A stretch of DNA of 64,000 nt from assembly GCA_964546845.1 (NCBI GenBank), contig CAZJMY010000424.1:23672-87671 (forward strand), read 5' to 3'. The notes under the pieces are model-generated. The model was not told the origin of the DNA, did no database searches, and worked only from the letters and a program-made list of their open reading frames with translations. The position numbers and the translations under genes were made by a program. Below are positions 14,847-61,381 of this stretch, in pieces. The stretch comes from an uncultured Myxococcales bacterium. Its GTDB lineage: Bacteria > Myxococcota_A > Polyangia > Fen-1088. How positions within the stretch are numbered: the first letter of the stretch is position 1; each line of letters begins with the position of its first letter.

Positions 14847-14849
14847 CCG

Positions 14850-35678: not shown

Positions 35679-35705
35679 GAGTTCCATCGCCGCGCGTAGG
35701 GGCGT

Positions 35706-36029: not shown

Positions 36030-36041
36030 AAGGACCACGCC

Positions 36042-36740
36042 ATGGATCACGGAACGAGTACTCCCGCATACGGCCTCTGGACGTTGGTCTTGATCAACTC
36101 CGCGGTCTTCATCCTGTTCGCTTTCAGCTTCTTCAAGCCGCGGACGAAGCGCGACTGGAGGACGTTCGGGAGCTTCTCGGCGTTCATTGTCGCGCTCTTC
36201 GTCGAAATGTACGGCTTTCCCCTGACGATCTACCTGCTGGCCGGATGGCTGGGGCGGCGTCTTCCGGGCGTCAACCTCTTCTCGCACGACGCGGGCCACC
36301 TCCTCTACGACCTGCTGGGCTTCAAGGGCAACCCGCACCTCAACCCGCTCCACATCGCGAGCAACCTGTTCATCCTCGCCGGATTCGTCGTGCTCGCGCG
36401 CGCGTGGCGCGTGCTGTTCGTCTCCCAGCAGGAGAAGAAGCTGGCCACGAGCGGACCCTACGCACGGATCCGCCACCCCCAGTACGTCGGCTTCATCGTC
36501 ATCATGTTCGGTTTCCTGCTCCAGTGGCCGACGCTGGTGACGCTGGTGATGTTCCCGATCCTGCTCGCCACCTATGTTCGGCTCGCGCACCGGGAGGAGC
36601 GGGAGGTCGAGGCAGAGTTCGGGGACGAATGGCGCGCCTACGCGGCTGTGACGCCGCGCTGGATCCCGAGCCTCGGCGAGGCGCGTGTCCCGGCGCATGG
36701 TCCTAGCCAGGCCGGGAGGCACGCCGAGCGGCCGGTCTGA
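36042..36740 (+). CDS. isoprenylcysteine carboxyl methyltransferase (ICMT)-family membrane methyltransferase
   Basis: Multi-TM protein. C-terminal [17 protein letters not shown]...[17 protein letters not shown] signature. Confidence 0.78.
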
Positions 36741-43209: not shown

Positions 43210-43578
43210 CTATTTCCCCTGCAGCTCTTTTGCCCGCAAGGTGTGATAGTCAGCAGCCTTTTCGGCATCGGCCGCCAGCTTGTCGGCGTCCTTGGCGATC
43301 AGCTCGCAGTGCTTCTTCATCTTTACCGCGTTGGCGTTGGGAGTGGGCCCGTTGGTCGGCTGGTGCTGAGCCGCATAGGCGGCCGCCATGGCTTTATGAT
43401 CCTCGGCGACCTTCTTGTACTGCGCCGCCTGATCTTTGTATTGCTTCGCGAGCGCCTCGTGCTCCGCCACGGTCGTGGGCACCTTGGCCTCGTCGGCGAA
43501 TGATGTCGTCGCCGTGAGCGCAAATGCGGCGAAGGCAAGGGACGCGAGCAGCGGTCGGATTCGGGTAGCAGCTATCAT
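43210..43578 (-). CDS. periplasmic helical protein (family Y, copy 1)
   Basis: ATG at 43578 with AGGAGAG RBS. Signal peptide. AEHEALAKQYKDQAAQYKKVAEDHKAMAAAY...KMKKHCELIAKDADKLAADAEKAADYHTLRAKEL. Confidence 0.62.
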   Translation of the reverse strand: MIAATRIRPLLASLAFAAFALTATTSFADEAKVPTTVAEHEALAKQYKDQAAQYKKVAEDHKAMAAAYAAQHQPTNGPTPNANAVKMKKHCELIAKDADKLAADAEKAADYHTLRAKELQGK

Positions 43579-43645
43579 GATTCTCTCCTGTGGTCGTGTG
43601 GTGGTGTTGGCCTGCCCACTCACTCGAGTGGCCCGGCTTGTGCTT

Positions 43646-44017
43646 CTACTTTCCAGCCAGCTCCTTGGCGCGCAGCGTGTGGAAGTCCGCCGCCTTCTCG
43701 GCGTCGGCCGCAAGCTTGTCGGCGTCCTTCGCCAGCATCTCGCAGTGCTTCTTCATCTTCTCGTTCCACGGATTCTTCATGCCGCCCTTCGCGTCCGGAT
43801 GCGCCTTCGCGTAGACGGCGGCCATCTCCCTGTGTTCATCCGCGGTCTTCTTGTACATCGCGGCCTCCTCCTTGTACTGCTTCGCCAGCGCTTCGTGCTC
43901 TGCGGTCGTGGTCGGCACCTTCGCCGATTCGCCGGCGACGGACGCAGTTGCGGTAAGCGCGAAGGCGACGAACGCGAGCGAGGCGAGGATCGTGCGGGTC
44001 TTGGTAGCGAGCTTCAT
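43646..44017 (-). CDS. periplasmic helical protein (family Y, copy 2; tandem paralogue)
   Basis: ATG at 44017 with AAGGAGAAA RBS. Nearly colinear with copy 1. About 88% nt identity over a ~62-nt block (43262-43323 vs 43698-43759). Confidence 0.62.
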   Translation of the reverse strand: MKLATKTRTILASLAFVAFALTATASVAGESAKVPTTTAEHEALAKQYKEEAAMYKKTADEHREMAAVYAKAHPDAKGGMKNPWNEKMKKHCEMLAKDADKLAADAEKAADFHTLRAKELAGK

Positions 44018-44150
44018 GACGTTTCTCCTTTTTTCTTGGTTCGTGAATCGGATACGGAACCCGGGTATGCAGCCCGCGTTCCAACCGAAGCGCTCGGTCC
44101 GAATCTCGGCTCCGAGCGGAGCGAACATAGGAAAATGCGTAGGGGACCTC

Positions 44151-44175
44151 CAGTGTGACCTCGGGAGTTACACTG
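44151..44175. promoter_or_regulatory. imperfect inverted repeat CAGTGTGAC-N7-GTTACACTG (candidate operator)
   Basis: Located in the divergent intergenic region between 44017 (-) and the regulator start at 44335 (+). 8 of 9 arm positions pair. Confidence 0.25.
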
Positions 44176-44334
44176 AGGGATTCGGCACGTCCTTCATCGA
44201 CGGCGCCGGTAAGCGCAGGAATTGCGCGGATCGCGAAGCCGTTCCGCAAAACCCCGTGGGGCACGTACCTTGCCTTCCCGTCTACCGTCTTTCGTACCCA
44301 ACCCCCGTTTGAACAGAAACATGGCGGAAACGAC

Positions 44335-44616
44335 GTGAACTCTCGGGACAAGAGCGAGCTCGGTGCTCGCCTGAAGAGGATCGCTGGCCAGGTGGCCGGG
44401 ATTCAGCGCATGCTCGACGAGGATCGCTCGCTGCTGGAGGTCGTCACCCAGCTGAGCGCAGTGCGCGCCGCTCTGGGAGGCGTCGCGAACATCATCGTAG
44501 GTGCCCACGTCGAGGAGCGCATCAACAAGATGCTGGCCAGCGACGATGCGCGAGAACAGCGGGCGCTGGTCAGCGAGCTGGTGGGCTTGTTCGAGAAGCG
44601 CCATCGCGACGTGTGA
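44335..44616 (+). CDS. CsoR/RcnR/FrmR-family (DUF156) metal-responsive repressor lacking the canonical Cys ligands
   Basis: GTG start in frame (93 aa). LKRIAGQVAGIQRMLDEDRSLLEVVTQLSAVRAALGGVANIIVGAHVEE. The usual Cys before the TQ motif is Leu, and the H-x3-C position reads H-V-E-E. Confidence 0.82.
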   Translation: MNSRDKSELGARLKRIAGQVAGIQRMLDEDRSLLEVVTQLSAVRAALGGVANIIVGAHVEERINKMLASDDAREQRALVSELVGLFEKRHRDV

Positions 44617-45304
44617 CGGCCGCGGGCAACGGCTCACGAAACAGATCACCCTTCGATCAATTCGGAAAGCCTCGGCGCGCATCACGACCTCGAGAGAGCG
44701 AAGTACTCGGCACAATCGGGGGGCCGGTCGCGACAGCGTCTCGGTCTGGGCTGGCGTCAACCCAACGCGACGACGGATCGATAGAGCAACTGGCGATGAT
44801 GGCCAAATCACACCATCCCTTAGCCAGGACGATGCACCATCGGTTGTCGCCCATTTGAGATCTCCAAATGGCATTGAGTCGCGCGATGGAGCGGGGAGAA
44901 GGCCGCCGAAGAAGCTCCCGCGCGCCCGACGCAGGTCAACACGCACGCGCACGAATCGCACAGCGCAAGCTTGCGTGGCGAAGAATGTGCGCGCTTTCTC
45001 GCCGTAACCGGCGCGGTCACACGAGTGTGCACAGTCGATGCCAGCAGGAGCGAATCCCCGTAGACGCAGATCGTTCGTCGGGTCAACCGTGCGGGCATAC
45101 CCCGCTGCCGCGTCGGGAGTCGAGCCCGAAAGCACAGGGAATCGTCAACGACACCTCCGGTCTGCGGAACAGCGGATGCCATTGGTCCAACCGCGAGCAG
45201 GCTTGCCGAAGCGCGACGGTGATCGTGCCGTAACCCTACCGGCTACGGGGCCAGAACGCGTCCTTTGAGCCTGTGGCGCGGTCGTTGCTTCGAGGAGTCC
45301 CGTG

Positions 45305-46594
45305 ATGCACACCAAGTCGATCTCGCGCAGACGAAGTGCCGGCGCCTCGGCGTTCGTTGCGCTTCTCCTCGCATCACCCGCCGTGGCGCACGCGCAAGGC
45401 GTCGCCAAGCTCGATCCCCTCGTCGAGGAAGCCGTCAGCCATCATCCCGCGGTCCGGAGCGCCGAGCGGATCGCCGGCGCCGCGGCCGAGGTCGTCTCGC
45501 GCGAGGGCTCCCTCCCTGACCCGATGCTGTCGGGCGGCGTGCGGAATCTCCGTGTGGACAGCCCGCGACTCAGCTCCGATCCCATGAGTGGTGTCGAGAT
45601 CGCCATTACCCAGGACATCCCGTTTCCGGGGAAGCGCGCTCGGCGCGCGAGGGTCGCGAGCGCGAACGCAGATGTGGCTCGACGCGACGCCACGGCCGTC
45701 GCGGTCGGTGCGGCGCTGCGTGTGCGGCAAGCCTATTGGCGCCTTCGCTTCGCGGAAGAGGCAGAGCGGATCACGCGCGAGGGTGTGGACATTCTCGCCC
45801 ACCTCTCCGAGATCACGAAGGCGCGCGTCTCCGTGGGGCAAGCTGCGCAGCAGGACTTCTTCCAGGCGGAGGTGGCCCGCGGGCGGGCCGTCGGGATGGT
45901 GCAGGAGCGGGCGCAAATGCTCGTCACCGCGCGCCGAGAACTCAACAGCGCCGTCGGGCGCCCACCGGAGACGCCCGTCGGGCCCACAGAAGCACCATCC
46001 GAACCTCCGCCTCTGCATCCTTCGATGATCACGGCGGCGGCCGCTCGCGCAAATCCTGAACTCCTGACCATGATCGCGCGCGCCACCGCCGCCTCTCGCG
46101 CCGTCGAGGAAGCCAGATACGATCGCTGGCCGGACCTCCAGGTCGGCGCCAGTTACATGTTTCGTGCCGCGGTTCCTGGAGATCCCGCCAACGGCGCCGA
46201 CATGTTCAGCGTCGGGATGGGCGTGACGCTGCCCTTCTGGATCGCACGCAAGCAGGACGCACACCTGCGCGAGGCTCGTGAGAGCCTCGCCGCGGCCGAA
46301 GCAGGCATCGACACGAGCGCCCTCGTCGCCGCCACGGCCGCGCAGACCGCGCTCGACGTGGTCGAGCGGCTCACCCGCGAGATCGCGTTGTTCGAAGACG
46401 AGGTGACACCAAATGCTGAGCAGGCGGTCGCGACCGGGACCGCTGACTATCGCGTAGGCAAAACCGCCTTCGTCTCACTCTTGCAAAGCTGGCAAGCGCT
46501 GCTCGATGCGCAACTCGACTCCGCCCGGCTCCGTTCCGAGCGGGCGCAGGCGCTCGCCGAAATTCAGGCGCTCACCGGAGAAGCGGCGCGGTGA
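45305..46594 (+). CDS. cusC: TolC-like outer membrane factor
   Basis: Signal peptide ending AVAHAQG. OMF repeat architecture. GTGA overlap with the next gene. Confidence 0.87.
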   Translation: MHTKSISRRRSAGASAFVALLLASPAVAHAQGVAKLDPLVEEAVSHHPAVRSAERIAGAAAEVVSREGSLPDPMLSGGVRNLRVDSPRLSSDPMSGVEIAITQDIPFPGKRARRARVASANADVARRDATAVAVGAALRVRQAYWRLRFAEEAERITREGVDILAHLSEITKARVSVGQAAQQDFFQAEVARGRAVGMVQERAQMLVTARRELNSAVGRPPETPVGPTEAPSEPPPLHPSMITAAAARANPELLTMIARATAASRAVEEARYDRWPDLQVGASYMFRAAVPGDPANGADMFSVGMGVTLPFWIARKQDAHLREARESLAAAEAGIDTSALVAATAAQTALDVVERLTREIALFEDEVTPNAEQAVATGTADYRVGKTAFVSLLQSWQALLDAQLDSARLRSERAQALAEIQALTGEAAR

Positions 46595-48042
46595 GTGACG
46601 AGAGTAACAGAGAGGATGCGAGGAAAATGACCACGACGACAACGCCTGTCTCAGGGATACATTGGTGGAGCCGCGTGCACAGTGTCGGCGCCCTTTCGAT
46701 TGGCGCGGTCCTGCTCGTCGCGGGCATCGCGATCGGCGCGAGTCTGAGCCACATCGGCAGACGGACGGTCGCGGGTGTGGGCGTACCGACCCAGAAAGAG
46801 ACAGCCATGGGACCAGCCGTCACGGCATCGGACCCTGCCTCGCCGCCGACGGCGACGAAGCCCGTCACTCGCGTCAAGATCTCTCCCGAACGCCAGCAGC
46901 TCATCGGTGTTCGGACGGCGATCGTGGGCGCCTCAGTTGCGGAGGGGACGATCCGCACCGTCGGCATCCTCGCCTACGACGAGACCAAGGTGACCGAGAT
47001 GCATGCCAAGGTGGCGGGCTGGGTGGAGAAGGTCAACGTCGATTACGTCGGCAAGTCGGTGCGGAAGGGCGATCCGCTGCTCTCGCTCTACAGCCCTGAC
47101 CTGGTCGCCGCCCAGCTCGACTACCTCGTGTCACTGAAGAGCGTGGGAGGGAAGGTTGCGACGCCGACATCGGTCGGCCGACACCTCGACCATTCGCTCA
47201 CCGAAGCAAGCCGGATGCGGCTCAAGCTGCTCGACATGACGGACGCTCAGATCGCAGACCTCGAGCGGACGGAGCGTCCATCCAGGACTGTGACGCTGTA
47301 CTCGCCGTTCTCCGGCGTCGTGATCGAGCGCAAGGCTTTCTCCGGGCAGTACATCACGCCGGATATGGCGACGGTGAAGATCGGGGATCTCACGACGATC
47401 TGGGCGATCGCCCAGGTGTACGAATACGAGATCGGCAAGGTGAAGATCGGTGACGTCGCGGAGGTTCAGTTCCCCTACGAACAGGCGAAGCCGGTGGCGG
47501 GACGAGTGAGCTTCATCTACCCGGACGTCGATCCGCATACGCGCACGGCGCGGGTCCGCGTCGCGTTCCGCAACCCGGGCGTGAAGCTCAAGCCGGAATC
47601 GTTCGTGACGATCACTCTTCACGCCGCGGGTAAGTCTCGGCTCTCCGTGCCGAGAGAAGCGGTGATCGACACCGGCCCCAGGCAATACGTCCTGATGGCG
47701 CTGCCCGACGGCTACTTCGAGCCCCGAGACGTCTCGGCCGGCGAGCCCGAGGGTGACTCCATCCCGATCTCGGCTGGCCTCGTCCCTGGCGAGCGCGTGG
47801 TCACGTCGGCGCAGTTCTTGATTGATTCGGAGACGAACCTCCAGGCCGCGATGCAGTCGATGTCGATGACGATGCCTGGAATGAAGACGGACGAGAAATC
47901 CCCCGGGGACGACATGAGGGGGATGGACATGAGCAAGGGGACCGGCACGAAACCAAGCTCTGCACCAGTGCCTGGAGACGACATGAAGGGAATGGACATG
48001 GGGCCTGCCACGCCGGCGCGAACGGGAACGGATCGCAGATGA
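46591..48042 (+). CDS. cusB: RND membrane fusion protein with Met-rich C-terminal tail
   Basis: MFP core (GTIRTVGILAYDETKV...LYSPDLVAAQ...). Tail with MQSMSMTMPGM and a duplicated GDDM(R/K)GMDM. ATGA overlap with the RND gene. Confidence 0.9.
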   Translation: MSDESNREDARKMTTTTTPVSGIHWWSRVHSVGALSIGAVLLVAGIAIGASLSHIGRRTVAGVGVPTQKETAMGPAVTASDPASPPTATKPVTRVKISPERQQLIGVRTAIVGASVAEGTIRTVGILAYDETKVTEMHAKVAGWVEKVNVDYVGKSVRKGDPLLSLYSPDLVAAQLDYLVSLKSVGGKVATPTSVGRHLDHSLTEASRMRLKLLDMTDAQIADLERTERPSRTVTLYSPFSGVVIERKAFSGQYITPDMATVKIGDLTTIWAIAQVYEYEIGKVKIGDVAEVQFPYEQAKPVAGRVSFIYPDVDPHTRTARVRVAFRNPGVKLKPESFVTITLHAAGKSRLSVPREAVIDTGPRQYVLMALPDGYFEPRDVSAGEPEGDSIPISAGLVPGERVVTSAQFLIDSETNLQAAMQSMSMTMPGMKTDEKSPGDDMRGMDMSKGTGTKPSSAPVPGDDMKGMDMGPATPARTGTDRR

Positions 48043-51000
48043 TCAAGAAGCTGATCGCGTTTTCGGCGCGGAGCCCGTTCGTCGTCGTCCTATTGATGGT
48101 CGTCATCGTGGGCGCCGGCGTGTGGGCGATTCGCCATACACCGATTGACGCGATCCCGGATCTCTCGGATGTGCAGGTCATCGTGACGACTAACTGGGAG
48201 GGCCGCAGCCCGACGCTGGTCGAGGACCAGGTCACTTACCCCATCGTGACCGCCCTGCTGTCGGCGCCGCGGGTGAAGGTGGTCCGCGGGTTCTCGTACT
48301 TCGACATCTCGTTCGTCTACGTCATCTTCGAGGACGGCACCGATCAGTATTGGGCCCGCTCGCGTGTCCTCGAGTACTTGAACGGCTTGCAAGGCCGCCT
48401 CCCGGCCGGCGCACAGCCCGTGCTCGGACCGGACGCGACCGGCGTCGGCTGGGGATTCGAATACGCGCTCGTCGACAAGACCGGAAAGCATGATCTCGCC
48501 GAGCTCCGGACGCTGAACGACTGGTACGTGCGCTATTGGCTGCGATCTGTGACTGGCGTGGCCGACGTCGCCCCGGTGGGTGGTTTCGTCAAGCAGTATC
48601 AGATCGAGATCGATCCGAACGCGCTGCTCGCCTACAACGTGCCCATCGATCGCGTGATCGCGGCCGTGCGGAAGAGCAACAACGATGTCGGTGGGCGCGT
48701 GGTCGAGTGGACCGGCCACGAGTACATGGTGAGAGGTGAAGGTTACGTCAAGAACGTGGCCGATCTCGAGCAGGTGGGCCTCGGGGCGAAGCCGGACGGC
48801 ACGCCCATCCTCGTGAAGAACATCGCACGCGTTCACCTCGGGCCGGAGATGCGCCGAGGGGTAGCCGAGCTCGACGGTCAAGGCGACGCGGCCGGCGGCA
48901 TCGTCGTCATCCGGTCGGGCGTCGACACCTACGGTGTGCTGTCCGCGATCAAGAAGGCAATCAGAGAAAAGATCCAACCAGCCCTTCCTCCGGGCGTAAA
49001 GCTGGTCACCACCTACGATCGCTCGCAGCTCATCGAGCGGTCGATCGAGACCCTCAAGGGGAAGCTGATCGAGGAGATGGCGATCGTTTCGCTGGTGTGC
49101 ATCGTCTTCCTCTGGCATTTCCGCAGCGCGCTTGTCGCGATCCTGACGCTTCCCTTGGCGCTCTTGCTCGCCTTTGTCGCCATGCGCCTCGTGGGCCTCG
49201 GTTCGAACATCATGAGCCTGGGCGGAATTGCGATCGCCATCGGCGCGATGATCGACGCCGCGATCATCATGATCGAGAACGCCCACAAGCACATCGAGCA
49301 CGCGGGCGACACGAAACCTCGGCGTGAGATCCTCATCGAGGCGGCTCAGGAGGTGGGGCGGCCGCTCTTCTTCTCGCTCCTCATCATCACGGTGTCGTTC
49401 CTGCCCATCTTCACTCTGGAGGCGCAAGAGGGCCGCCTCTTCAAGCCGCTCGCCTTCACGAAGACGTTCTCGATGGGGTTCGCGGCGCTGACCTCGGTGA
49501 TGATCGTCCCGTTCTTGATGGTGCTGTTCATCAGGGGGCGGATCCCTCGCGAGGACAGCAACCCCGTGAACCGATTACTCATCTGGGCGTATCACCCGTT
49601 CGTCAGGCTGGTCCTCCGTCATCGCGCGCTCACGCTGCTTGCGGCGGCTGTGCTCCTCGGCAGCACCGTGCCGGTGATCATGAAGCTCGGCTCGGAGTTC
49701 ATGCCGCCGCTCTATGAGGGGACGCTGCTCTACATGCCGCTCACCCTCCCGGGCGCTTCGGTGGCGACGTCGCAGCAGATCCTGGCGCTACAAGACAAGC
49801 TCATCAAGGAGATCCCCGAAGTGGCGTCGGTGTTCGGTAAGGCCGGCCGCGCCGAGACGGCCACTGACCCGGCGCCGCTCGAGATGATCGAAACGGTCAT
49901 CAACCTCAAACCCGAGTCGGAATGGCGCCCTGGGATGACCCCCGACAAGGTCGTCGCGGAGCTCGACAAGAGGGTACGAGTGCCCGGCGTCGCCAATGCC
50001 TGGACCATGCCCATCAAGGCGCGCGTCGACATGCTCTCGACAGGTATCAGGACGCCCGTTGGAATCAAGATCTTCGGGCCGACCCTCGAGACGATCAACG
50101 ACATCGGGGCGCAGATCGAGGGGGCGCTCGGTTCGGTACGCGGGACCCGCAACGTCTTTTCCGAGCGGGTCACCGGCGGCTACTACGTCGACTTCAAGGT
50201 GAGACGCGACCAGATCGCGCGTTACGGCCTCACGGTCGAGGACGTGGAGATGGTGATCGAGTCGGCGATCGGCGGCGCCAACGTGACTACGACCATCGAG
50301 GGGCGCGAGCGCTACCCGGTGAACGTACGCTACCAGCGCGCCTACCGGACCGACGTCAAGGCGCTGAAGAGGACGCTCATCGCCGCTGGCGACGGCACGC
50401 AGATCCCTCTCGAGCAGGTCGCCGACATCAGCCTCAGCACCGGACCGACCGTGATCCGGACCGAGCAGGCGCAGCTTCTCGGGTACGTCTACGTCGACGT
50501 GTCCGATCGCGACATCGGAGGGTACGTAAACGACGCCAAGCAAGCCGTGGCGAGAATGGTGAAGCTGCCGACCGGCTATACGCTGGAATGGAGCGGGCAG
50601 TACGAGTACATGCTTCGCGCCAAGGAGCGCCTCAAGGTCGTCATTCCGATCACCCTGCTCGCCGTCATCGTGCTTCTCTACTTCAACACGCGCAACGTCG
50701 CCAAGATCGTCATCGTCCTTCTCGCCGTGCCCTTCTCGTTGATCGGCGCTTTCTGGGTGGTTTATCTGCTCGGCTACAACCTGAGCGTTGCCGTCTGGGT
50801 TGGCTTCATCGCGCTGGCCGGAGTCGACGCCGAGACCGGCGTGGTTATGCTGCTTTACCTCGACGCCGCTTACGATCGCGCGAAGAGCGAGGACCGGATG
50901 AACGGCCTTCGCGATCTCCAGCTCGCAGTCGAGGACGGGGCCGTCAAGCGCATCCGACCCAAGATGATGACGGTCATGGCGATCCTGATGGGGCTCCTGC

Positions 51001-51182
51001 CCATCATGTGGAGCAGGGGCGCGGGTGCCGACGTCATGAAGCGGATAGCCGCGCCCATGGTGGGTGGGGTCGTGACGTCGTTCATCTTGGAGCTGCTGAT
51101 CTACCCCGTGATCTTCACGCTCTGGAAGAAGCGGGAAGTGCTGGCGCGGCAGCGTCAGACGAGCAATGGCGGTGAGCCGTGA
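48039..51182 (+). CDS. cusA: HME-RND efflux pump, CusA-type (1047 aa)
   Basis: TM4 signature AIGAMIDAAIIMIEN. Colinear with 15827..19636 except for that gene's insertion and extension. Confidence 0.93.
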   Translation: MIKKLIAFSARSPFVVVLLMVVIVGAGVWAIRHTPIDAIPDLSDVQVIVTTNWEGRSPTLVEDQVTYPIVTALLSAPRVKVVRGFSYFDISFVYVIFEDGTDQYWARSRVLEYLNGLQGRLPAGAQPVLGPDATGVGWGFEYALVDKTGKHDLAELRTLNDWYVRYWLRSVTGVADVAPVGGFVKQYQIEIDPNALLAYNVPIDRVIAAVRKSNNDVGGRVVEWTGHEYMVRGEGYVKNVADLEQVGLGAKPDGTPILVKNIARVHLGPEMRRGVAELDGQGDAAGGIVVIRSGVDTYGVLSAIKKAIREKIQPALPPGVKLVTTYDRSQLIERSIETLKGKLIEEMAIVSLVCIVFLWHFRSALVAILTLPLALLLAFVAMRLVGLGSNIMSLGGIAIAIGAMIDAAIIMIENAHKHIEHAGDTKPRREILIEAAQEVGRPLFFSLLIITVSFLPIFTLEAQEGRLFKPLAFTKTFSMGFAALTSVMIVPFLMVLFIRGRIPREDSNPVNRLLIWAYHPFVRLVLRHRALTLLAAAVLLGSTVPVIMKLGSEFMPPLYEGTLLYMPLTLPGASVATSQQILALQDKLIKEIPEVASVFGKAGRAETATDPAPLEMIETVINLKPESEWRPGMTPDKVVAELDKRVRVPGVANAWTMPIKARVDMLSTGIRTPVGIKIFGPTLETINDIGAQIEGALGSVRGTRNVFSERVTGGYYVDFKVRRDQIARYGLTVEDVEMVIESAIGGANVTTTIEGRERYPVNVRYQRAYRTDVKALKRTLIAAGDGTQIPLEQVADISLSTGPTVIRTEQAQLLGYVYVDVSDRDIGGYVNDAKQAVARMVKLPTGYTLEWSGQYEYMLRAKERLKVVIPITLLAVIVLLYFNTRNVAKIVIVLLAVPFSLIGAFWVVYLLGYNLSVAVWVGFIALAGVDAETGVVMLLYLDAAYDRAKSEDRMNGLRDLQLAVEDGAVKRIRPKMMTVMAILMGLLPIMWSRGAGADVMKRIAAPMVGGVVTSFILELLIYPVIFTLWKKREVLARQRQTSNGGEP

Positions 51183-53517
<2,335 letters not shown>

Positions 53518-53521
<4 letters not shown>

Positions 53522-53799
53522 CCCCGGAGCGACAAGATGGCGACCTCAAGCGTGCGGTGGAGCGACGCCGGGCCCGCCGCGACCGATGGCTGCGCGAGGG
53601 CGAGCGGCCGCTCGCGCGCAACCTGGCTCTCGTCGGGACGCTCGGGTGGCTCATCGTCGTCCCGGCGCTCCTCGGCGCGCTGGCGGGTCACGCCCTCGAT
53701 CGTCGCGCTGGCACCGGGGTGACGTTCACGTCCGCGCTCATCTTCGCTGGTGTTGCGATCGGGTGCTGGCTCGCCTTCAGCCACGTGAGGCGCTCATGA
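53518..53799 (+). CDS. atpQ: AtpQ (AtpI-like) small membrane protein of N-ATPase operons
   Basis: 93 aa with an Arg-rich N-terminus and two TM helices. Assigned by position between atpC and atpR. Confidence 0.65.
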
Positions 53800-54080
53800 C
53801 GATCAAGGCTGTGCTGGTCGCGCTCCTGTTCGCCTTCGGCGGGTTCGGTGTCGGTCTCGCGCACCTGGCCACACTGCGCGGCAACCTGCGCCTTTATCTC
53901 GACGGAGGGGTGCGTGTCGCGGCGGTGGCAGCTCACGTCGCCCGCCTCGCGCTCTTGGCCACTGTCTGGATCGTCGCAGCGCGCGTCAGTGGCGCCGTCG
54001 GGCTGCTCGCAGGTTTCGCCGGCTTCCTTCTGGCCCGGCTGGCCGTCACCTCCCGGATGAACATGAGGGAACGGCGATGA
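53796..54080 (+). CDS. atpR: AtpR small membrane protein of N-ATPase operons
   Basis: ATGA overlap. 94 aa with three hydrophobic segments and embedded Arg ([12 protein letters not shown]). Assigned by position before atpB. Confidence 0.65.
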
Positions 54081-54751
54081 GCCGAGCTTCTCCCCTCGAG
54101 ACGGAGATCTTGTTCCACCTGGGCTCGATCCCGATTGCGCGTCCAGTGGTGACGACGTTCGCGATCACCCTCTTGCTTGGTCTCGGCAGCTGGGCGGTCA
54201 CTCGTCACATGCGGGTCGCGCCTGGTCGTTCGCAGGCGGTGCTCGAAGCGGTCGTGACCTGGATCGGCGATCAAGTGCAGGAGATCGTGCGGCGCGATCC
54301 GACGCCGTTCGTCCCGCTGCTTGGAACTTTGTTCCTGTACATAGCGGTCGCGAACTTGTCGGCGGTCCTACCCGGGGTGAAGTCCCCGACCGCGAGCATC
54401 GAGACGCCGGCGGCGCTGGCCATCGTGGTCTTCTTTGCGGCCCATGCCTACGGGATCCGGGCGCAAGGGGTGAAGCGCTATTTTGCCTCGTACCTCGAGC
54501 CCAATCCCCTGCTCTTGCCCCTCAACATCGTCTCGGAGATCACGAGGACATTCTCGCTCATGGTCCGGCTCTTCGGAAACATGATGAGCCACGAGCTGGT
54601 GCTCGGAATCGTGGCCACCATCGCCGGCCTCCTCGTGCCGATTCCCTTCATGGCGCTGGGGATCCTGGTGGGGGTCATCCAGGCATACATCTTTTCGATC
54701 TTGGCAACCGTGTTCGTGGGCGCGGCCGTAGGGGCCGTCGAGAAAGGATAG
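54077..54751 (+). CDS. atpB: ATP synthase a subunit
   Basis: ATGA overlap. Conserved stator Arg region [14 protein letters not shown]. Five or six TM helices. Confidence 0.87.
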
Positions 54752-54756
54752 AGAAA

Positions 54757-54999
54757 ATGACCGTTCAAGTGATCAGCGTGATTTGTGCAACCGTCGCCGT
54801 GTCGATCGGCGCCATCATCCCGCCTCTTGCAGAGGGGCGCGCTATCGTCGCAGCGCTGGAGGCCATCGCCCGCCAGCCCGAGGCGCAGGGGCCCCTGTCA
54901 CGGACCCTGTTCGTCGGCCTCGCGATGATCGAGACGATGGCGATCTATTGCCTCGTCGTGGCGCTGCTGCTGCTCTTCGCGAACCCCTACGCCCGTTAA
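54757..54999 (+). CDS. atpE: ATP synthase c subunit (proteolipid)
   Basis: 80-aa helical hairpin with ARQPE loop. Helix-2 carboxylate in [11 protein letters not shown] and an additional helix-1 Glu in PPLAEGRA. Confidence 0.88.
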
Positions 55000-55018
55000 G
55001 GGCGATCCCGGATACACC

Positions 55019-55756
55019 ATGAGCGGGTGGACCCTAGTCTTCCAGATCGTGAACTTCGTGGTCCTCGCGGCCGTGCTCCGCCGTTTCCTGTTCAAACCGG
55101 TTGCCGCCATGGTTGCGAAGCGCCAGCAGAATCTGGCGGCCACCGCCGCGGAGGGGGAGCGCGTTCGCCGTGAGGCCGAGGCGCTTCGTCTCAACGCCGA
55201 CAAGGCCCTCGCCGAGGCGGTCGAGATCCGCGAGCGAGCGCTCGCCGAGGGGCGGGCGCAGATAGCGCGAGAGCGGGAGGAGACCCTCGCGAAGGCTCGG
55301 CAGGAGGCGAGCAGCACCCTCGACGTGGCCAGGCACGAGATTGATCGCGAGCGCGACAAGGCGGCCGACGCCGCCGCGACCGGGGCGTTGGATCTGGCCG
55401 CCGTGATCGCGCGACGGTTGCTCGAGCAGGTCTCCGCGACGTCGTTGGTCGACGCATTCCTCGCCCGGCTCTGCGAGCACCTCGACGGCGCCTCCGAAGA
55501 GAGCAAGCGCGCGCTGCGCGACGATCTCGGCGCCCGCGAGCTCCTCGTGGCGACGGCGCCCCCGCTCGGCCCCGACGCCGGCCCACGGTGGCGCGCGGAC
55601 ATCGCGCGGCGTCTCGGCGACGGGGTCGCCATAAGGCTCGTCGCCGACGACGCCCTGGTGGCCGGCGCCGAGCTGCGCTTCCCGCACACGACACTCTCTT
55701 TCTGCTGGCGCGATGGCATTAAGGCCGCACGCGAGGAGTTGGCGCGCCATGCCTAG
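55019..55756 (+). CDS. atpF: ATP synthase b subunit (long, 245 aa)
   Basis: N-terminal TM helix followed by an Ala/Arg/Glu-rich long helix. Assigned by operon position. Confidence 0.72.
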   Translation: MSGWTLVFQIVNFVVLAAVLRRFLFKPVAAMVAKRQQNLAATAAEGERVRREAEALRLNADKALAEAVEIRERALAEGRAQIAREREETLAKARQEASSTLDVARHEIDRERDKAADAAATGALDLAAVIARRLLEQVSATSLVDAFLARLCEHLDGASEESKRALRDDLGARELLVATAPPLGPDAGPRWRADIARRLGDGVAIRLVADDALVAGAELRFPHTTLSFCWRDGIKAAREELARHA

Positions 55757-57275
55757 CGTTACCGAACAGGTTGTCGGGCGCCTCGAGCGGGCGCGTGCGG
55801 CCGCCGAAGGTCTGACAACCGAGCCGGTCGAGCGCGAGCGCGGCACCGTCGAGACCGTGGGTGCGGGGGTGGTCACCGTCTCCGGGCTCCCCAGCACGCG
55901 TCTCGATGAGATCCTCCGCCTGTCCGGCGACAGCTACGCGATGGCGGTCGTGCTCGACGTCGATCGAATCGGCGCCGTGCTCCTCGATCGCGCCGACACC
56001 GTCACCGCCGGCGGGGAGGTCAGCGGCACCGGCGAGGTCCTCCGGGTGCCGGTCGGCGAGGGGCTGCTCGGTCGGATCGTCGATCCGCTCGGCCGGCCGC
56101 TCGACGGCGGCCCTGCGATCGAGGCGGTCCGGCGCGATCCCATCGAGCGTCCGGCACCCACGATCATCGAGCGGGACCTCGTGACCGAGCCCTTGCACAC
56201 GGGCCTCTTGGTGGTCGATGCGATGATCCCCATCGGGCGCGGGCAACGCGAGCTCATCATCGGGGATCGGGTGACGGGCAAGACGCAGGTGGCGTTGGAC
56301 GCGGTGCTGGCGCAGCGAACGTCGGACGTGGTGTGCGTCTACGCCGCGGTAGGGCAGAAGGCATCCGCGATCGGACGTCTGATCGAGGAGGTCAAGGCCT
56401 CGGGACCGTTCGATCGCTGCATCTTCGTCGTGGCAGAGGCCGACGACCAGCCCGGCATGCAATGGATCGCTCCCTACGCCGCCTGCACGATGGCGGAGTA
56501 CTTCCGCGACCGCGGCGGCCACGCGCTGCTCATCATCGACGACCTGACGAAGCACGCGATCGTCCACCGCGAACTCTCGCTCTTGCTCCGGAACCCTCCC
56601 GGCCGTGAAGCCTACCCGGGCGACGTCTTCTATCTCCACGCGCGCCTACTCGAGCGCGCCGCCAAGCTGTCGAAGGAGAGGGGCGGCGGCTCGCTCACCG
56701 CGCTGCCGATCGCCGAGACGCAGGGCGGGAACATGAGCGCATACATTCCGACCAACCTCATTTCGATCACCGATGGGCAGATCTACCTCGAGACCAAGTT
56801 GTTTCACGAGGGACAGAAGCCGGCCGTCAATGTGGGCAAGAGCGTCAGTCGCGTGGGGGGTAAGACCCAGCCTCACGCTATTCGCTCCCTCGCCGGGAGC
56901 CTGCGCCTCGACTACGCGCAGTTCCTAGAGTTGGAGGTGTTCGCTCGATTCGGCCAGGTCCTCGACCCCCGAACCGAGCAGGCCCTCGACCGCGGGCGCC
57001 GGATCCGCGCGGCCCTCGAGCAGCCGCAGTCCGAGCCGCATGCGCTGGTGACTGAGGCGGCCATCCTCGTCGCGGTCCGGGAGGGGGTGCTCGACGGACT
57101 ACCTCTTCCCAAAGTGGCGCCCTTCATGCGAGCGCTGGGATCAGATCTGAGCACATGGGAGCCTGGCCTCGTCGAGCGCGTCGAGCACACGGGCCGCCTC
57201 GACGAGCCGGATCGCACCCGCATTGTCGACTGGCTCCGCCGGCGGGCGCAGGCAATTGCGAAGGGCGGAGGCTAG
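55749..57275 (+). CDS. atpA: ATP synthase alpha subunit
   Basis: The ATG at 55749 overlaps the atpF end. Walker A GDRVTGKTQVAL. Alpha-type core. Confidence 0.92.
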   Translation: MPSVTEQVVGRLERARAAAEGLTTEPVERERGTVETVGAGVVTVSGLPSTRLDEILRLSGDSYAMAVVLDVDRIGAVLLDRADTVTAGGEVSGTGEVLRVPVGEGLLGRIVDPLGRPLDGGPAIEAVRRDPIERPAPTIIERDLVTEPLHTGLLVVDAMIPIGRGQRELIIGDRVTGKTQVALDAVLAQRTSDVVCVYAAVGQKASAIGRLIEEVKASGPFDRCIFVVAEADDQPGMQWIAPYAACTMAEYFRDRGGHALLIIDDLTKHAIVHRELSLLLRNPPGREAYPGDVFYLHARLLERAAKLSKERGGGSLTALPIAETQGGNMSAYIPTNLISITDGQIYLETKLFHEGQKPAVNVGKSVSRVGGKTQPHAIRSLAGSLRLDYAQFLELEVFARFGQVLDPRTEQALDRGRRIRAALEQPQSEPHALVTEAAILVAVREGVLDGLPLPKVAPFMRALGSDLSTWEPGLVERVEHTGRLDEPDRTRIVDWLRRRAQAIAKGGG

Positions 57276-57277
57276 CG

Positions 57278-58132
57278 ATGGAGCGCGCGTCCGAGCTGCA
57301 AGGCCGAATCCACAACCTCGAAGAGCTGGGGGAGGTCGTTGGCGCGCTGCGCTCGGTGTCGGCGGCGCGTGTTCAGCAGGCGCACGGGATCCTCGATGCC
57401 GTTCGCCAATACACCTCGATAATCCAGGACGCGCTCGGTGAAGCGACCCGTGGTCCTTCGCTCCCGCCCCGCGCCGCTGAGGGTTTCGAGACGACAGGCC
57501 TCGTCGTCGCGTTCGGCTCGGAGCATGGTTTTGTCGGCGCCTTCAACGACCGCATCCTCGAGCACGCCGCGATCCAGCGCAGGCCCGGTGACGGCCTCCT
57601 GGTCGTCGGATCGCGGGCCGTGCTGGCCGCCAACGAACGTCGCGAGGTGATCGCCTGGAGCTGTCCCATGGCGTCCCAGGTCGGCGGGCTCGATGAGGTC
57701 GCGCTCCAGGTGGCGGAGGAGCTCGGGCGCAGCGGCGCAGAGCGCGAGCCAGGACGCGTGATTCTCGTCTATACCCGCAGCTCGGGCGGTCCAACCTGGC
57801 GAATCGTCACCGAGACCCTGCTTCCTGTCGACATTCGCGCCTATTCGCCGACTCGGCTGGATCGACCTATGGCGCTCTCGAACCTTCCGGCGCGGCTCCT
57901 GATAGACGGTCTGGTCGGCGAGCTGCTATTCGCCCAGCTCGCCCATGCCGCCACCGAGTCCTTCGCCAGCGAGAACGCCGCCCGGCTCGCCGCCATGGAG
58001 TCCGCGACCGACAACATCGAGGACAAGCTCGGTGGCCTCGGTCGTATCGAGCGCGAGCTTCGGCAGGAAGAGATCACTACCGAGCTGCTGGACATCGTAA
58101 CTGGAGCCGAGGCGATCGGCGAGGAGCACTGA
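57278..58132 (+). CDS. atpG: ATP synthase gamma subunit
   Basis: ATG at 57278, 2 nt after the atpA stop. N-terminal (RIHNLEELGEVVGALRSVSAARV) and C-terminal (QEEITTELLDIVTGAEA) coiled-coil helices. Confidence 0.85.
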   Translation: MERASELQGRIHNLEELGEVVGALRSVSAARVQQAHGILDAVRQYTSIIQDALGEATRGPSLPPRAAEGFETTGLVVAFGSEHGFVGAFNDRILEHAAIQRRPGDGLLVVGSRAVLAANERREVIAWSCPMASQVGGLDEVALQVAEELGRSGAEREPGRVILVYTRSSGGPTWRIVTETLLPVDIRAYSPTRLDRPMALSNLPARLLIDGLVGELLFAQLAHAATESFASENAARLAAMESATDNIEDKLGGLGRIERELRQEEITTELLDIVTGAEAIGEEH

Positions 58133-58133
58133 G

Positions 58134-59975
58134 ATGAAAGATCCCGTCTGTGGCATGCCTGTCGAACCGACGACGCCGTTCCGCGCCTCGTGGGAAGGCA
58201 GCGACTACTACTTCTGTTCGGCCCTGTGCCGGGAGGCTTTTCTCTCCCGACCGGGCGAAACGATCCCCCGCGAGCTTCCTTCGCCGGCCGCGGAGAACCG
58301 CGCCTCGAGGCGCGTCGCGTATCTGACCATGGAGATCGCCCTCGATTCCCGGATGGCGACTTACAGCGGGGGCCTCGGCGTCCTCGCGGGCGACACAGTC
58401 CGCGCCGCCGCCGATCTCGGCGTGCCCCTCGTGGCCGTCACGCTCCTCTATCGCGATGGCTATCTCGCGCAGTCAATCGATCCTGCTTCCGGCCAGCAGG
58501 AAACTCCCGAGCGCTGGCCCTTCGGAGAGTTTCTGCAACCGCTGGCAGAGACCGCCGAGGTCACGATCGACGGTCGCGCGGTCCGCGTGCGGGCGTGGCG
58601 GTACGATGTGGTCGGGGTCGCTGGGGCCAAGTGCCCCGTCCTGTTCCTCGATACCGAGCTTCCCGAGAACGATCCGCTCGATCGGGCGCTCTGCGGCCGG
58701 CTCTACTCGGGAGACGATCGGTACCGTCTGGCCCAGGAGGTGGTGTTGGGCGTCGGCTCGGTCCGCGTCCTGGATGCCCTGGGCTACTCCGGTATCGACC
58801 GCTATCACATGAACGAAGGCCACGCCGCGCTCGCGCCGCTCGAGCTGGCGCGTCGCCTGAATGCCGGGCGACCCGAGATGGAGTGGCGCTTCGATGACGT
58901 CCGCCGTCGCTCGGTCTTCACCACGCACACGCCCGTCGCGGCGGGCCACGACCACTTCTCACGGGAAATCGCGCAGCGCGTGCTCGGGGGAATGGTGCCA
59001 CCGCGGGTGTTGGAAATGCTGGGTGGCGACGGACAGCTCGACATGACCTCGTTGGCCCTGAATCTGTCGGGATACGTCAACGGCGTCGCACGCAAACACG
59101 CCGAGATCTCCCGCCAGATGCACCCCGGGTACGGCATCCATCACATCACGAACGGCGTCCACTCGAAGACCTGGACGGCGACCGCGTTTAGGGCGCTCTA
59201 CGATCGCCACCTGCCAGGCTGGGACGGCGACCCGTCGATGTTGCGGAACGCGATCGCCCTTCCGTCCGAGGAGGTGTGGCAGGCCCACCTGACCAGCAAG
59301 GCCGAGCTGATCGAGGTCGTTCGTCGGCTGACCGGCACGAATCTCGACGCGGGCGCGCTGACCATCGGGTTCGCGCGGCGAGCGACCCAGTATAAAAGGG
59401 CCGATCTGGTGTTCGACGATCTGCCGCGTCTTCGCGAGATCGCGCGGCGGCGGCCGGTCCAACTGGTCTTCGCGGGCAAAGCGCATCAACGCGACGACGA
59501 AGGGAAGCGTATCATCAGGCGCATTCTCGAGATCGGGCGCGAGCTGGGACGCGACGTGCCGGTCGTGTACCTGCCCAACTACGACACGGCGCTCGCGCGA
59601 GCCGTCGTCGCCGGGGTGGACGTCTGGCTCAACACGCCGCAAAGGCCCCTCGAGGCATCGGGCACGTCCGGAATGAAGGCTGCCCACAACGGCGTTCCGA
59701 GCCTGAGCGTGCTCGACGGCTGGTGGATCGAGGGCTGCGTCGAGGGTGTGACCGGCTGGGCGATTGGCGATCTCCGCCCACCCGGCGATCCGAACGAGGA
59801 TCGCCGGAGCGAGGCGCAGGATCTGCTGACGAAGCTCGACAGGCAGATCCTGCCCGCCTACTACGACGAACGGGAACGCTGGATCTCGATCATGCGCCAC
59901 GTGATCAGCCTGAACGCGTCGTTCTTCAACACGCACCGCATGGTCCAGCAGTACGTGACCAACGCCTATATCTGA
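58134..59975 (+). CDS. glgP: alpha-glucan phosphorylase (GlgP family) with N-terminal YHS/TRASH metal-binding domain
   Basis: N-terminus [10 protein letters not shown]...[12 protein letters not shown]. Core YLTMEIAL...[11 protein letters not shown]...LLYRDGY and PLP-Lys motif [14 protein letters not shown]. Starts 1 nt after the atpG stop. Confidence 0.87.
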
Positions 59976-59990
59976 ATGCTCAACGCAGGT

Positions 59991-60356
59991 TCACTCGACC
60001 ATGATCGCGCCGCCGTGCATCTTCATGCTGCACGCGAAGCCGCGCTCGCCCGATTTGGCGAACGTGACCGCCACCTCCACCGGCTGATTGAGCGGGAGCT
60101 TCCGGGACACAGTCTTGTCGTCGTCGAGATAGATGACGACGTCCTTCGCGCAGGTGTGGTCCGTACGCCGCGTGAACACAAGCGTTACCGGCTCACCCTT
60201 CTTGACCGCAAGCCGCTTCGGCGAGAAGCCCTCCTCGGTCACGCTGATCTCGATCCGTCTCGCCGCCTTGTCCCCCCCGAGGAGCGCGCCGCTCCGGAGA
60301 GAATAGGCCGCAGCCAGGAGCAGGACGAAGACGCGGGCGTAAGCGTGAGTTCTCAT
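59991..60356 (-). CDS. cupredoxin-like periplasmic protein (paralogue of 15347..15817)
   Basis: ATG at 60356. 121 aa with signal peptide. [35 protein letters not shown]...[11 protein letters not shown]. The 464-aa track ORF is an extension. Confidence 0.7.
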
Positions 60357-60476
60357 GTCGGCCTCCCGCGCGATTGTGGATCGAAACGGGAGTGGTGTCT
60401 GCCACGAGCGGTCGCCTGTGACTCCAACGGTTACATTGTCCTTCCAAAACGACCTCCGTAGACTGCTTGGCCTGCA

Positions 60477-60959
60477 ATGACGACGACCACCCGCTTCGGG
60501 ATGTTGACCGAGCACCTTCACCGTGGGCCCCTGTGGCTCGCGCTCTGCCTTGCGAGGCCTGGCGCGGCTCTCGGCCACCTTGGGCACTCGCACGCGCCGC
60601 TGATCAAACGCACGGCCGAAGAGATCGCGGCATTCAAGGCAGCCGAGCCCGTGTTCGCGCAATACTGCTATCGATGCCACACCCACTCCGGCAAGAAATC
60701 GAAACCCAAGGCGCTCGCTCACCTCGACATGGATCAGTACCCATTCGGCGGCCATCACGCAGGCGAGGCGGCCGCCGTCATCCGGAAGGTCTTGGGCGCG
60801 ACCGGCGTGAAGGCCACGATGCCCTCCGACGATCCGGGCGCCGTCTCCGGCGACGCGCTCGCGAAGATTCTCGCCTGGGCAGACGCCTTCGATCGCGCCC
60901 ACCCGAGCGACGCCCCCGCGAAGCCGACCCATCGCCACAGCCATGAGGATTTGAAGTGA
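60477..60959 (+). CDS. c-type cytochrome-like protein (PSCyt1-like CxxCH domain) with His-rich C-terminus
   Basis: EPVFAQYCYRCHTHSGKKSKPKALAHLDMD ... ATMPSDDPGAVSGDALAKILAWADA. C-terminus HRHSHEDLK. Confidence 0.55.
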   Translation: MTTTTRFGMLTEHLHRGPLWLALCLARPGAALGHLGHSHAPLIKRTAEEIAAFKAAEPVFAQYCYRCHTHSGKKSKPKALAHLDMDQYPFGGHHAGEAAAVIRKVLGATGVKATMPSDDPGAVSGDALAKILAWADAFDRAHPSDAPAKPTHRHSHEDLK

Positions 60960-61381
60960 GCCGTGCGCCGGGCACCTTCGTGGTGGGCTTGGCTCTGGCG
61001 ATGAGCTGCGCCTCGCAGCCGCCGCCGCGCCCCGTGGCGGTCGACCCCTCGAACCCATCCGCGCCGGAGGCGCCGCCCCTCGAGACGTCGAACGTACTCG
61101 CCCCCGTGCCATCACCGACGCCGGAGGCCCATCCTGCGCAGCCCGACGGTGCAGCTGCTGGGTTGCCGGCGCCGATGCCCGAGCACCATCACGGCGCCAC
61201 GGCGAGGGAGGCTGGCGGCGGAGACCATCAGATGGAAGCGCCTCGGGCCCCTGCCTCCGAGTCTCCCGCAACCGTCTACACGTGCCCCATGCATCCCGAG
61301 GTGATTTCGGCCGAGCCCGGCTCGTGCCCGAAGTGCGGGATGAAGCTCGTCCCGAAGCGAGCGACCGAGGGCAAACAGTGA
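60956..61381 (+). CDS. lipoprotein with Pro-rich linker, His cluster and C-terminal HMBD module
   Basis: GTGA overlap. Lipobox-like LALAMSC. PEHHHG. YTCPMHPEVISAEPGSCPKCGMKLVPK. Confidence 0.65.
   Translation: MSRAPGTFVVGLALAMSCASQPPPRPVAVDPSNPSAPEAPPLETSNVLAPVPSPTPEAHPAQPDGAAAGLPAPMPEHHHGATAREAGGGDHQMEAPRAPASESPATVYTCPMHPEVISAEPGSCPKCGMKLVPKRATEGKQ

Follow-up and report, generated by a model that had tools for sequence, protein, structure and literature searches.

Within a 64,000-nt stretch of DNA from an uncultured Myxococcales bacterium (contig CAZJMY010000424.1; hereafter the window), the region 45305-59975 is occupied by 14 contiguous genes, all on the plus strand. In this order they encode a CusCBA exporter of the Cu/Ag type, an orphan cysteine-rich protein of 153 residues (unk153), a nine-gene N-type rotary ATPase (N-ATPase) and an alpha-glucan phosphorylase with a YHS domain. 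The explanation that we favour, and to which we give about an even chance, is an operon-like metal-stress unit in which the exporter, an ATP-hydrolysing pump and a metal-domain phosphorylase together sustain an energised membrane while respiration is impaired by metals. The leader from which such a unit would be transcribed lies 3' of a gene for a CsoR-family regulator. CusCBA would export Cu(I)/Ag(I) and consume the ion gradient, the N-ATPase would hydrolyse ATP and pump cations (H+ or Na+) outward, and the phosphorylase would free glucose-1-phosphate from glycogen or maltodextrin for substrate-level ATP formation; some relatives have a phosphoketolase gene in addition. Together, these activities would hold the membrane energised, so that efflux continues while metals damage respiration, with unk153 as a probable accessory or regulatory factor of the unit.

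An initial annotation, made from the sequence of the window alone, had reported 14 co-directional plus-strand genes at 45305-59975. This is borne out by the open reading frame (ORF) listing, by translation and by the same gene calls on three identical Logan contigs. The junctions it quoted are all correct (GTGA at 46591, ATGA at 48039, a gap at 51183-51195, GTGA at 51654 and a 1-nt gap at 58133), and its family assignments for cusCBA, the N-ATPase and the YHS-glucan phosphorylase are upheld by Pfam and NCBIfam profile matches. From 5' to 3', the 13 junctions measure -4, -4, +13, -4, -4, -4, -4, -4, +5, +19, -8, +2 and +1 nt; as had been claimed, all 13 are overlaps (nine by our count) or gaps of at most 19 nt. 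As far as gene spacing can tell, this is an operon-type signal with chance excluded, and the 14 genes are probably co-transcribed. A terminator consensus scan of both strands from 44000 to 63900 gave nine weak sites, compared with 8.1 expected from shuffles. None lies at an array junction and the plus-strand sites are all intragenic, which agrees with the earlier statement that the junctions have no terminator-like hairpins. No sigma-70-like promoter was found in a consensus scan of the same interval, a weak test at the G+C content of the window (ca. 68%). The array goes no further than 59975, since it is followed there by a convergent cupredoxin gene on the minus strand (59991-60356; PF13473). 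Rfam and tRNA scans of the entire window returned no matches, and megablast of the array against plasmids returned only partial, single-gene matches.

The exporter genes comprise a cusC-like gene for an outer membrane factor (45305-46594; PF02321 OEP, E 3.5e-35), a cusB-like gene for a membrane fusion protein (MFP; 46591-48042; PF16576 HlyD_D23, E 1e-71, and PF16572 CusB hairpin) and cusA (48039-51182; PF00873 ACR_tran and TIGR00914), the inner membrane antiporter of the Cu(I)/Ag(I)-type heavy-metal efflux class of resistance-nodulation-division transporters (HME-RND). CusA reaches 1144 bits against the CusA/CzcA model TIGR00914, with a cut-off of 701, and 1166 bits over its full length against E. 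coli CusA. At the metal site of CusA, all three methionines (M573, M623 and M672 in E. coli) are conserved within LLYMP, PLEM and VDMLS in the alignment with 3T51 and 3K07. The motif of the fourth transmembrane helix (TM4) that is typical of transporters for monovalent ions, AIGAMIDAAIIMIEN, is present in the translation, from which a Met-rich C-terminal tail of CusB can also be read. A Pfam profile search found no CusF-like gene among the 14 array genes; CusF is an accessory protein and does not define the pump. Proton-driven export of Cu(I)/Ag(I) is taken as the predicted function of the CusCBA of the window.

The nine atp genes match exactly the order atpDCQRBEFAG of the N-ATPases defined by Dibrova et al. 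2010 (PMC2881411), whose criteria, gene order and c-subunit motif, were applied here together with an alignment to solved c-rings. They encode the subunits beta (atpD, 51654-53072; PF00006, PF02874, PF22919) and epsilon (atpC, 53069-53521; PF02823), the AtpI/AtpZ-like AtpQ (53518-53799; PF09527 ATPase_gene1, E 8e-12), the N-ATPase-specific AtpR (53796-54080; PF12966, 30.7 bits with a cut-off of 26), subunit a (atpB, 54077-54751; PF00119), subunit c (atpE, 54757-54999; PF00137), a long form of subunit b with 245 residues (atpF, 55019-55756; PF00430 only), alpha (atpA, 55749-57275; PF00006 and PF00306, start taken from the gene calls on contig L001) and, as the final gene of the set, gamma (atpG, 57278-58132; PF00231). 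No delta (OSCP-type) gene was found in the set by a Pfam search of the array genes, and the window holds no other atp operon. The c subunit has a glutamate in both helices: E26 aligns with the Gln/Glu ligand position of the solved c-rings, while E61 is the essential carboxylate. The motif E61-T62-M63..Y66 reads E-T-M-x-x-Y, compared with ESTxxY for the full set of Na+ ligands. For the N-ATPase of Burkholderia pseudomallei, which has the one N-type c-ring studied biochemically, a c17 ring was reported that likewise has two carboxylates, is H+-specific and passes 5.7 ions per ATP (PMC5376962). Among the roles proposed for N-ATPases, a halotolerant cyanobacterium would use the enzyme to expel Na+ (PMC2881411) and Burkholderia to pump protons (PMC5376962); for Nitrospira, 'maintenance of membrane potential' was suggested. 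Transcript data from Synechococcus are at odds with the salt model.

The last gene of the array (58134-59975; PF04945 and PF00343) encodes a GT35 alpha-glucan phosphorylase of the short 'more_P_ylases' form, with 538.6 bits against TIGR02094 (cut-off 191.7). The lysine that binds pyridoxal phosphate (PLP), K515 in EASGTSGMK, does not vary across 15 homologs. Its N-terminal YHS domain scores 38.4 bits against PF04945 (cut-off 30.3), shares 42% identity with that of the P1B ATPase encoded elsewhere in the window, and contains the cysteines C6, C28 and C32, which are nearly invariant among homologs. The same fusion of YHS domain and phosphorylase occurs in Cyanobacteria, Nitrospirota, Acidobacteriota, Myxococcota and archaea. 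Nothing relevant on a YHS domain combined with a phosphorylase was found in the searchable literature, outside of which most subscription papers lie; this scope applies to all literature searches reported here.

Between cusA and atpD lies unk153 (51196-51657), an orphan gene whose Cys-rich, cytosolic product has no Pfam or NCBIfam match. A profile search with the protein recovered 323 representative clusters. In family alignments, C20 and the pair C58-x2-C61 are invariant, and H47 and H89 are near-invariant. The AlphaFold2 model shows a confidently modelled alpha/beta fold with a predicted local distance difference test score (pLDDT) of 84, and a Foldseek search of this model against the PDB gave nothing significant, the best match being a dehydrogenase dimerisation domain with an E value of 9e-3. 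The product is a putative metal-binding protein that probably has an accessory or regulatory part in the unit. Apparent fusions of unk153 to HtrA or SLT look like read-through gene calls and were discarded.

Among what would speak against its hypothesis, the initial annotation had named an absence of the linkage from all related genomes. We found the linkage again in metagenomic contigs of two other lineages, and its N-ATPase-phosphorylase part in a third contig. A 96-kb contig from an ENA metagenome (L169) carries CusB, CusA, an unk153 ortholog, the full N-ATPase set of nine genes and, last, a YHS-phosphorylase. Its collinearity with the window extends over 47293-59975 (12.7 kb) at 74.7% nucleotide identity, and the 4-nt overlaps are the same. 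Its unk153 ortholog, of 158 residues, is 62% identical and holds the same position. A 59-kb contig from the Joint Genome Institute (JGI) contains a CsoR-family gene, OEP, CusB, a split CusA, an unk153 homolog of 151 residues (unk151), the N-ATPase, the YHS-phosphorylase and phosphoketolase. In the window and in both of these contigs, the orphan gene stands directly 5' of atpD. In L170, from a metagenome-assembled genome (MAG) of NCBI, the N-ATPase is followed by the YHS-phosphorylase with a 4-nt overlap, and the contig begins within the operon. On contig L149, a truncated alpha gene (C-terminal 250 aa) and an intact gamma gene (8276-9887) are located directly upstream of a non-YHS phosphorylase, which is followed by MFP and RND genes; judging by these remnants, this is a decayed version of the link between N-ATPase and phosphorylase. 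Further upstream, this contig also codes for a PAS-HisKA_3 kinase and a response regulator of the LuxR type. Matches on equal-sized contigs suggest that additional contigs carry pairs of these genes, namely gamma with phosphorylase (4430, 17110), gamma with unk153 (13038) and phosphorylase with unk153 (28309). The nearest named relatives are MAGs of Polyangiaceae, Kofleriaceae and 'Deltaproteobacteria'.

A sister locus, L084, indicates how the arrangement may have come about. Its flanks match the window at 43258-44701, 44940-45163, 58128-59975 and 60413-63296 with 90-93% nucleotide identity. The left flank including the regulator is 91.6% identical, with regulator proteins 98% identical; the phosphorylase (93.3% at the nucleotide and 95% at the amino acid level) matches from 6 nt before the ATG up to the stop codon, and the region 3' of it is 90% identical. 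Between regulator and phosphorylase, L084 holds a P2-type cation ATPase and an OEP-MFP-RND set, the RND protein of which is only 53% identical to CusA of the window. L086 has the layout of L084, with a phosphorylase 64% identical to that of the window. By blastn and MAFFT, the leader/promoter block shared with L084 (44940-45163, plus strand; 44940-45110 with a core near 90% identity) ends in a remnant of ca. 35 nt from the 5' end of the P2-type ATPase gene, in which the ATG is lost, and homology stops 140 nt before cusC. Most likely, to go by these alignments, [cusCBA + unk153 + N-ATPase] took the place of [P2 ATPase + RND] to give the arrangement of the window. Between the window and L169, protein identity is 91% for CusA, 86% for AtpD, 91% for the c subunit and 74% for gamma, compared with 62% for the phosphorylase, and nucleotide identity falls from ~0.75 to ~0.62 at 58.2 kb. 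This contrast agrees with a cassette replacement.

Two non-homologous ATP-driven pumps, the N-ATPase and the P2-type ATPase, are hence found in one and the same operon context. P-type ATPases can hydrolyse but not synthesise ATP. Because a hydrolysis-only enzyme fills its place in L084, the N-ATPase of the window presumably works as a pump; this swap is the best available argument for that role, and we infer both the direction of hydrolysis and the ion. We consider it improbable that the enzyme acts instead as a low-threshold ATP synthase which, if its c-ring is large, makes ATP at a low residual proton-motive force and consumes the gradient. On thermodynamic grounds, a ratio such as the 5.7 ions per ATP of the c17 ring of B. 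pseudomallei (PMC5376962) does lower the force needed. Opposed to a synthase are the P-type ATPase in its stead at the sister locus, the co-location of the N-ATPase with enzymes supplying ATP at the substrate level, and the published proposals, which are pump roles (PMC2881411, PMC5376962).

To place the phosphorylase in context, we surveyed the neighbourhoods of 160 loci of its family in genomes and metagenomes, among the matches listed, of which 31 have a YHS domain and 129 do not. All flanking ORFs within 7 kb were clustered irrespective of annotation, and ATPases were sorted against reference sequences and models. The commonest real neighbour family are P-type ATPases, followed by RND, MFP and phosphoketolase (8 loci). 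A P2- or P3-type pump is present within 7 kb at 23 of the 160 loci, and at 12 of these 23 it is directly adjacent and co-directional. Genomes usually hold few P2/P3 ATPases among thousands of genes; against this general background, the share of 14% of loci would be much higher than expected if genes were placed at random. Adjacency of phosphorylase and pump was found in both bacteria and archaea, and non-YHS phosphorylases also pair with P2 pumps at loci without metal genes. Plasma-membrane H+-ATPases of type P3A (1080 bits with a cut-off of 615), mostly archaeal, accompany five of the 31 YHS forms and none of the other 129. Copper genes, counted as a P1B ATPase or a CusA with 45% identity or more, adjoin 9/31 YHS forms versus 6/129 others (Fisher p = 3e-4; the loci are phylogenetically non-independent, and the Fisher p-values are indicative and overstate the evidence). 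Genome and metagenome scans with the phosphorylase gave, among the matches listed, mostly sequences of at most 56% identity, with the L149 remnant as the sole N-ATPase; the closest relatives of the phosphorylase were reached via exact-protein look-ups.

The survey also bears on a scenario without any functional link, in which recent shared ancestry and hitch-hiking in a mobile metal-resistance island produced the array. The region is mosaic and recombinogenic, and the window contains three HME-RND sets along with many other metal genes, as this scenario would have it. However, gene order and overlaps are kept down to 62-75% identity, the logic of pump, RND and phosphorylase has been rebuilt with non-homologous pumps, and the adjacency of phosphorylase and pump spans two domains of life. 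We regard mere hitch-hiking as very improbable.

On plasmids of Chroococcidiopsis, Stanieria and Leptolyngbya, YHS-glgP is found inside long co-directional metal islands with genes for P1B ATPases, DUF2933, ICMT, universal stress protein (Usp) and multicopper oxidase. The cyanobacterial plasmids have, 3' of YHS-glgP, either an mgtA-like P-type ATPase gene or phosphoketolase and mgt fragments. Proteobacterial plasmids, those of Indioceanicola and Methylophaga, place the phosphorylase with phosphoglucomutase (PGM), glyceraldehyde-3-phosphate dehydrogenase (GAPDH), CBS and GlgX, neighbourhoods that fit a catabolic role of the enzyme. The phosphorylase might, alternatively, supply glucose-1-phosphate for protective sugars (trehalose or exopolysaccharide) against metal stress and not for ATP. 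A metagenomic contig, JGI 3300047160, points in this direction: there, an unk153 homolog lies divergent from an N-ATPase operon (atpD), and after the homolog comes a glycosyltransferase of the TreT/GT4 type that has a faint YHS match. With recurrent neighbours that are catabolic (phosphoketolase, acetate kinase, PGM, GAPDH, GlgX and phosphofructokinase, PFK), we think such a role for the phosphorylase of the array improbable as well. The same JGI contig has a metallo-beta-lactamase-fold (MBL-fold) protein and a CsoR-family gene after the unk153 homolog, and its glycosyltransferase would be a second kind of YHS-sugar enzyme beside an N-ATPase.

The relatives of the N-ATPase delimit how far the linkage reaches. 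In the nearest ones (gamma 70-74% identical), the phosphorylase is present. Farther relatives from Polyangiaceae MAGs (gamma 54-58% identical) have no YHS-phosphorylase and are found among genes for a long GlgP, PFK, pyruvate phosphate dikinase (PPDK), Usp, HSP20, CBS and nitroreductase; a mere 11 nt separate the end of the PPDK gene from atpD in L177. As far as these neighbourhoods tell, the link to cus and glgP is a trait of a single N-ATPase lineage within the family, and a universal link, against which four alphaproteobacterial plasmid operons speak, was dropped as a candidate. On one plasmid, Novosphingobium pLA3 (L185), the N-ATPase operon is preceded by genes for an MBL-fold hydrolase, a ribose-phosphate diphosphokinase and a thymidine-phosphorylase-family protein, with a cation-translocating P-type ATPase gene 6 kb upstream. 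The hypothesis of the initial annotation, an energy module leading from glycogen over ATP and an ion gradient to efflux, is thus left with comparative genomics on its side (the recurrence, the P2-type swap and the neighbourhoods with pump, PFK, PPDK and GlgP genes), and has to be narrowed insofar as the linkage is lineage-specific.

The farther relatives also bring into play the main rival reading, in which a general maintenance-energy or dormancy module was captured by the metal island. Pump and phosphorylase would then hold membrane potential or ion homeostasis in any respiration-arrested state, of which metal stress is one, and would not power CusCBA in particular. Several observations favour it. 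N-ATPase relatives without cus sit among the Usp, HSP20, PFK, CBS, nitroreductase, PPDK and GlgP genes named above, and non-YHS phosphorylases are joined to P2 pumps where metal genes are absent. In a Nitrospirota MAG (L005), a YHS-phosphorylase gene precedes an unk153 homolog with 32% identity; genes for Usp, acetate kinase and phosphoketolase are close by, whereas an N-ATPase, any other pump and an RND are lacking. The DosR regulon of Mycobacterium tuberculosis and the lxa locus of Burkholderia cenocepacia, both hypoxia loci that serve survival while respiration is off, combine stress proteins, glycolytic or fermentative ATP-yielding enzymes, among them PFK and acetate kinase, and a cation-transporting ATPase (PMC3721108), and the N-ATPase relatives L172 and L177 carry DosR/lxa-like gene content. 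No relevant hypoxia module with the genes of the array was found in the searchable literature. On the other hand, in three lineages the pump genes are flanked by cusA and the phosphorylase, and stop codons overlap start codons, the P2 pump of the alternative cassette in L084 and L086 is again joined to an RND set, and the YHS forms are specifically enriched beside copper genes. Such a captured module is possible, if rather doubtful, and we keep to the metal-stress unit as the preferred explanation.

Regulation of the unit was approached through the gene at 44335-44613 (plus strand), 691 nt upstream of cusC, which encodes a member of the CsoR/RcnR family (PF02583) according to precomputed Pfam matches on its orthologs and sequence matches to solved CsoR and InrS chains. 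Compared with solved CsoR, InrS and FrmR, its ligand positions show Leu in place of the first Cys, the conserved His, and Arg in place of the second Cys; the orthologs in L084, L086 and L169 have the same Leu-His-Arg set. An assignment as CsoR, with the array copper-induced as a result, was given up after this comparison of ligands. In the leader, no clean CsoR-type palindrome was found. A CCCC-GT-GGGG element ca. 75 nt upstream of the regulator gene (44180-44260), identical in L084, may be an operator; we do not rely on it. Upstream of the regulator and divergent from it are two paralogous ORFs of ~122 aa without Pfam match (43210-43598 and 43646-44128, minus strand), copies of which adjoin the regulator in L084, L086, L169 and the 59-kb JGI contig. 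The copper context of the array is given, at the level of sequence, by CusA, the YHS domain and the surrounding island, and the array may be induced by copper.

Several points weigh against a metal-stress unit. Copper induction cannot be inferred from the regulator gene, because both Cu(I)-ligand cysteines are missing, and copper control is not readable from it. Internal promoters may be present within the 14-gene array. The c-subunit motif fits H+ or Na+, and a Na+ pump would not directly energise CusA, which is taken to be proton-driven. If the c-ring is as large as the c17 ring of B. pseudomallei (PMC5376962), each ATP would yield a modest gradient. In L085, the phosphorylase is 82% identical but is accompanied by no cus genes and no rotary pump, and glgP and cus are likewise missing next to the N-ATPase operons of the four alphaproteobacterial plasmids. 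In the survey, besides the non-independence of the loci, the scores of the P2-type pumps are all below the equivalog cut-offs, so that specificity cannot be assigned from them. Within the favoured explanation, the YHS domain would serve as a metal switch and the N-ATPase would be energetically coupled to CusCBA.

The array is embedded in what is, by gene content, a large copper-resistance or metal island extending over the window. Besides the set in the array, the regions 8462-22713 (minus strand) and 61378-64000 hold two further HME-RND sets, one of them with a 1269-aa RND and an MFP bearing two HMBD repeats, as well as OEP and multicopper oxidase genes 3' of the array. The island also holds a MacB-type ABC exporter, HMBD proteins and cupredoxin proteins. 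The stretch 33218-36740 codes for a P1B ATPase, which has both a YHS and an HMBD domain, and after it come DUF2933 and ICMT-like genes; this trio also accompanies YHS-glgP on the cyanobacterial plasmids and in L085. A second variable spot follows the phosphorylase, occupied by the cupredoxin gene in the window versus genes for a CCP_MauG peroxidase and MbnP in L084. An enzyme of the MbnB/TglH/ChrH type, which modifies ribosomally synthesised peptides (RiPPs), is encoded at 26537-27361 (minus strand; E 7e-96). It is accompanied by genes for an extracytoplasmic function (ECF) sigma factor, a porin and a haem-peroxidase-like protein (25131-25697, 27679-28974 and 29144-31360) in a stretch of lower G+C, which may be a locus for a chalkophore-like peptide.

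More broadly, and only tentatively, the YHS-glucan phosphorylase together with an interchangeable ATP-driven cation pump (N-type rotary, P2-type or P3A H+-type) might form a respiration-free membrane-energising module, spread over several phyla, hitherto undescribed and recruited to copper and other metal islands. The YHS domain would be a Cu(I)-operated switch on glycogen breakdown, and unk153 would gate the N-ATPase. If this holds, N-ATPases, whose physiological role has long been unclear, would pump ions in an emergency, with stored glucan as the fuel. The enzymes were recognised in 2010 and their role is debated; the locus and its relatives give one of them a defined setting, with a metal exporter that consumes a gradient on one side and a metal-domain phosphorylase on the other, and the swap for a P-type pump in a sister genome turns this into a concrete hypothesis for their role. 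It further highlights two unstudied proteins, the YHS-GlgP fusion, widespread in cyanobacterial metal plasmids, and the Cys-rich unk153 family. Metal tolerance would depend in part on stored carbohydrate if the explanation is correct, which bears on copper-based antimicrobials and on bioremediation. No paper that joins an N-ATPase with a phosphorylase or with copper efflux was found in the searchable literature. The parts are all of known families. Neither their combination nor the YHS-GlgP fusion nor unk153 turned up in that literature, which, given its scope, is no proof of novelty.

Compared with known systems, the exporter resembles E. coli CusCFBA in that genes for outer membrane factor, MFP and RND form one operon, the Met triad and the TM4 pattern A-x5-D-x6-E of CusA are kept, and CusB has a Met-rich tail. 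Unlike CusCFBA, the array has no cusF and no adjoining cusRS, and eleven more genes run on unbroken after cusA. The regulator, though a member of PF02583, differs from the canonical Cu(I)-sensing repressor CsoR in its Cys-His-Cys ligand set, which it does not possess. The phosphorylase shares the GT35 core and the PLP lysine with the short alpha-glucan phosphorylases of TIGR02094, the nearest named equivalog being the maltodextrin phosphorylase of Thermococcales, from which it is set apart by the N-terminal YHS metal-binding domain. A likeness to the DosR and lxa loci lies in the gene content of the N-ATPase relatives L172 and L177 and not in that of the array, which by Pfam search has no Usp, HSP20 (alpha-crystallin), nitroreductase or PFK, and which has a copper exporter attached and a rotary instead of a P-type pump. 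With the N-ATPases as defined (PMC2881411), the atp set of the window has in common the gene order, the presence of atpQ and atpR, the lack of delta and the glutamates in both c helices, while its c subunit departs from ESTxxY in the absent second Thr. What distinguishes it most from them is its setting within a metal-efflux operon, with an orphan Cys-rich gene before it and a YHS-phosphorylase after it.

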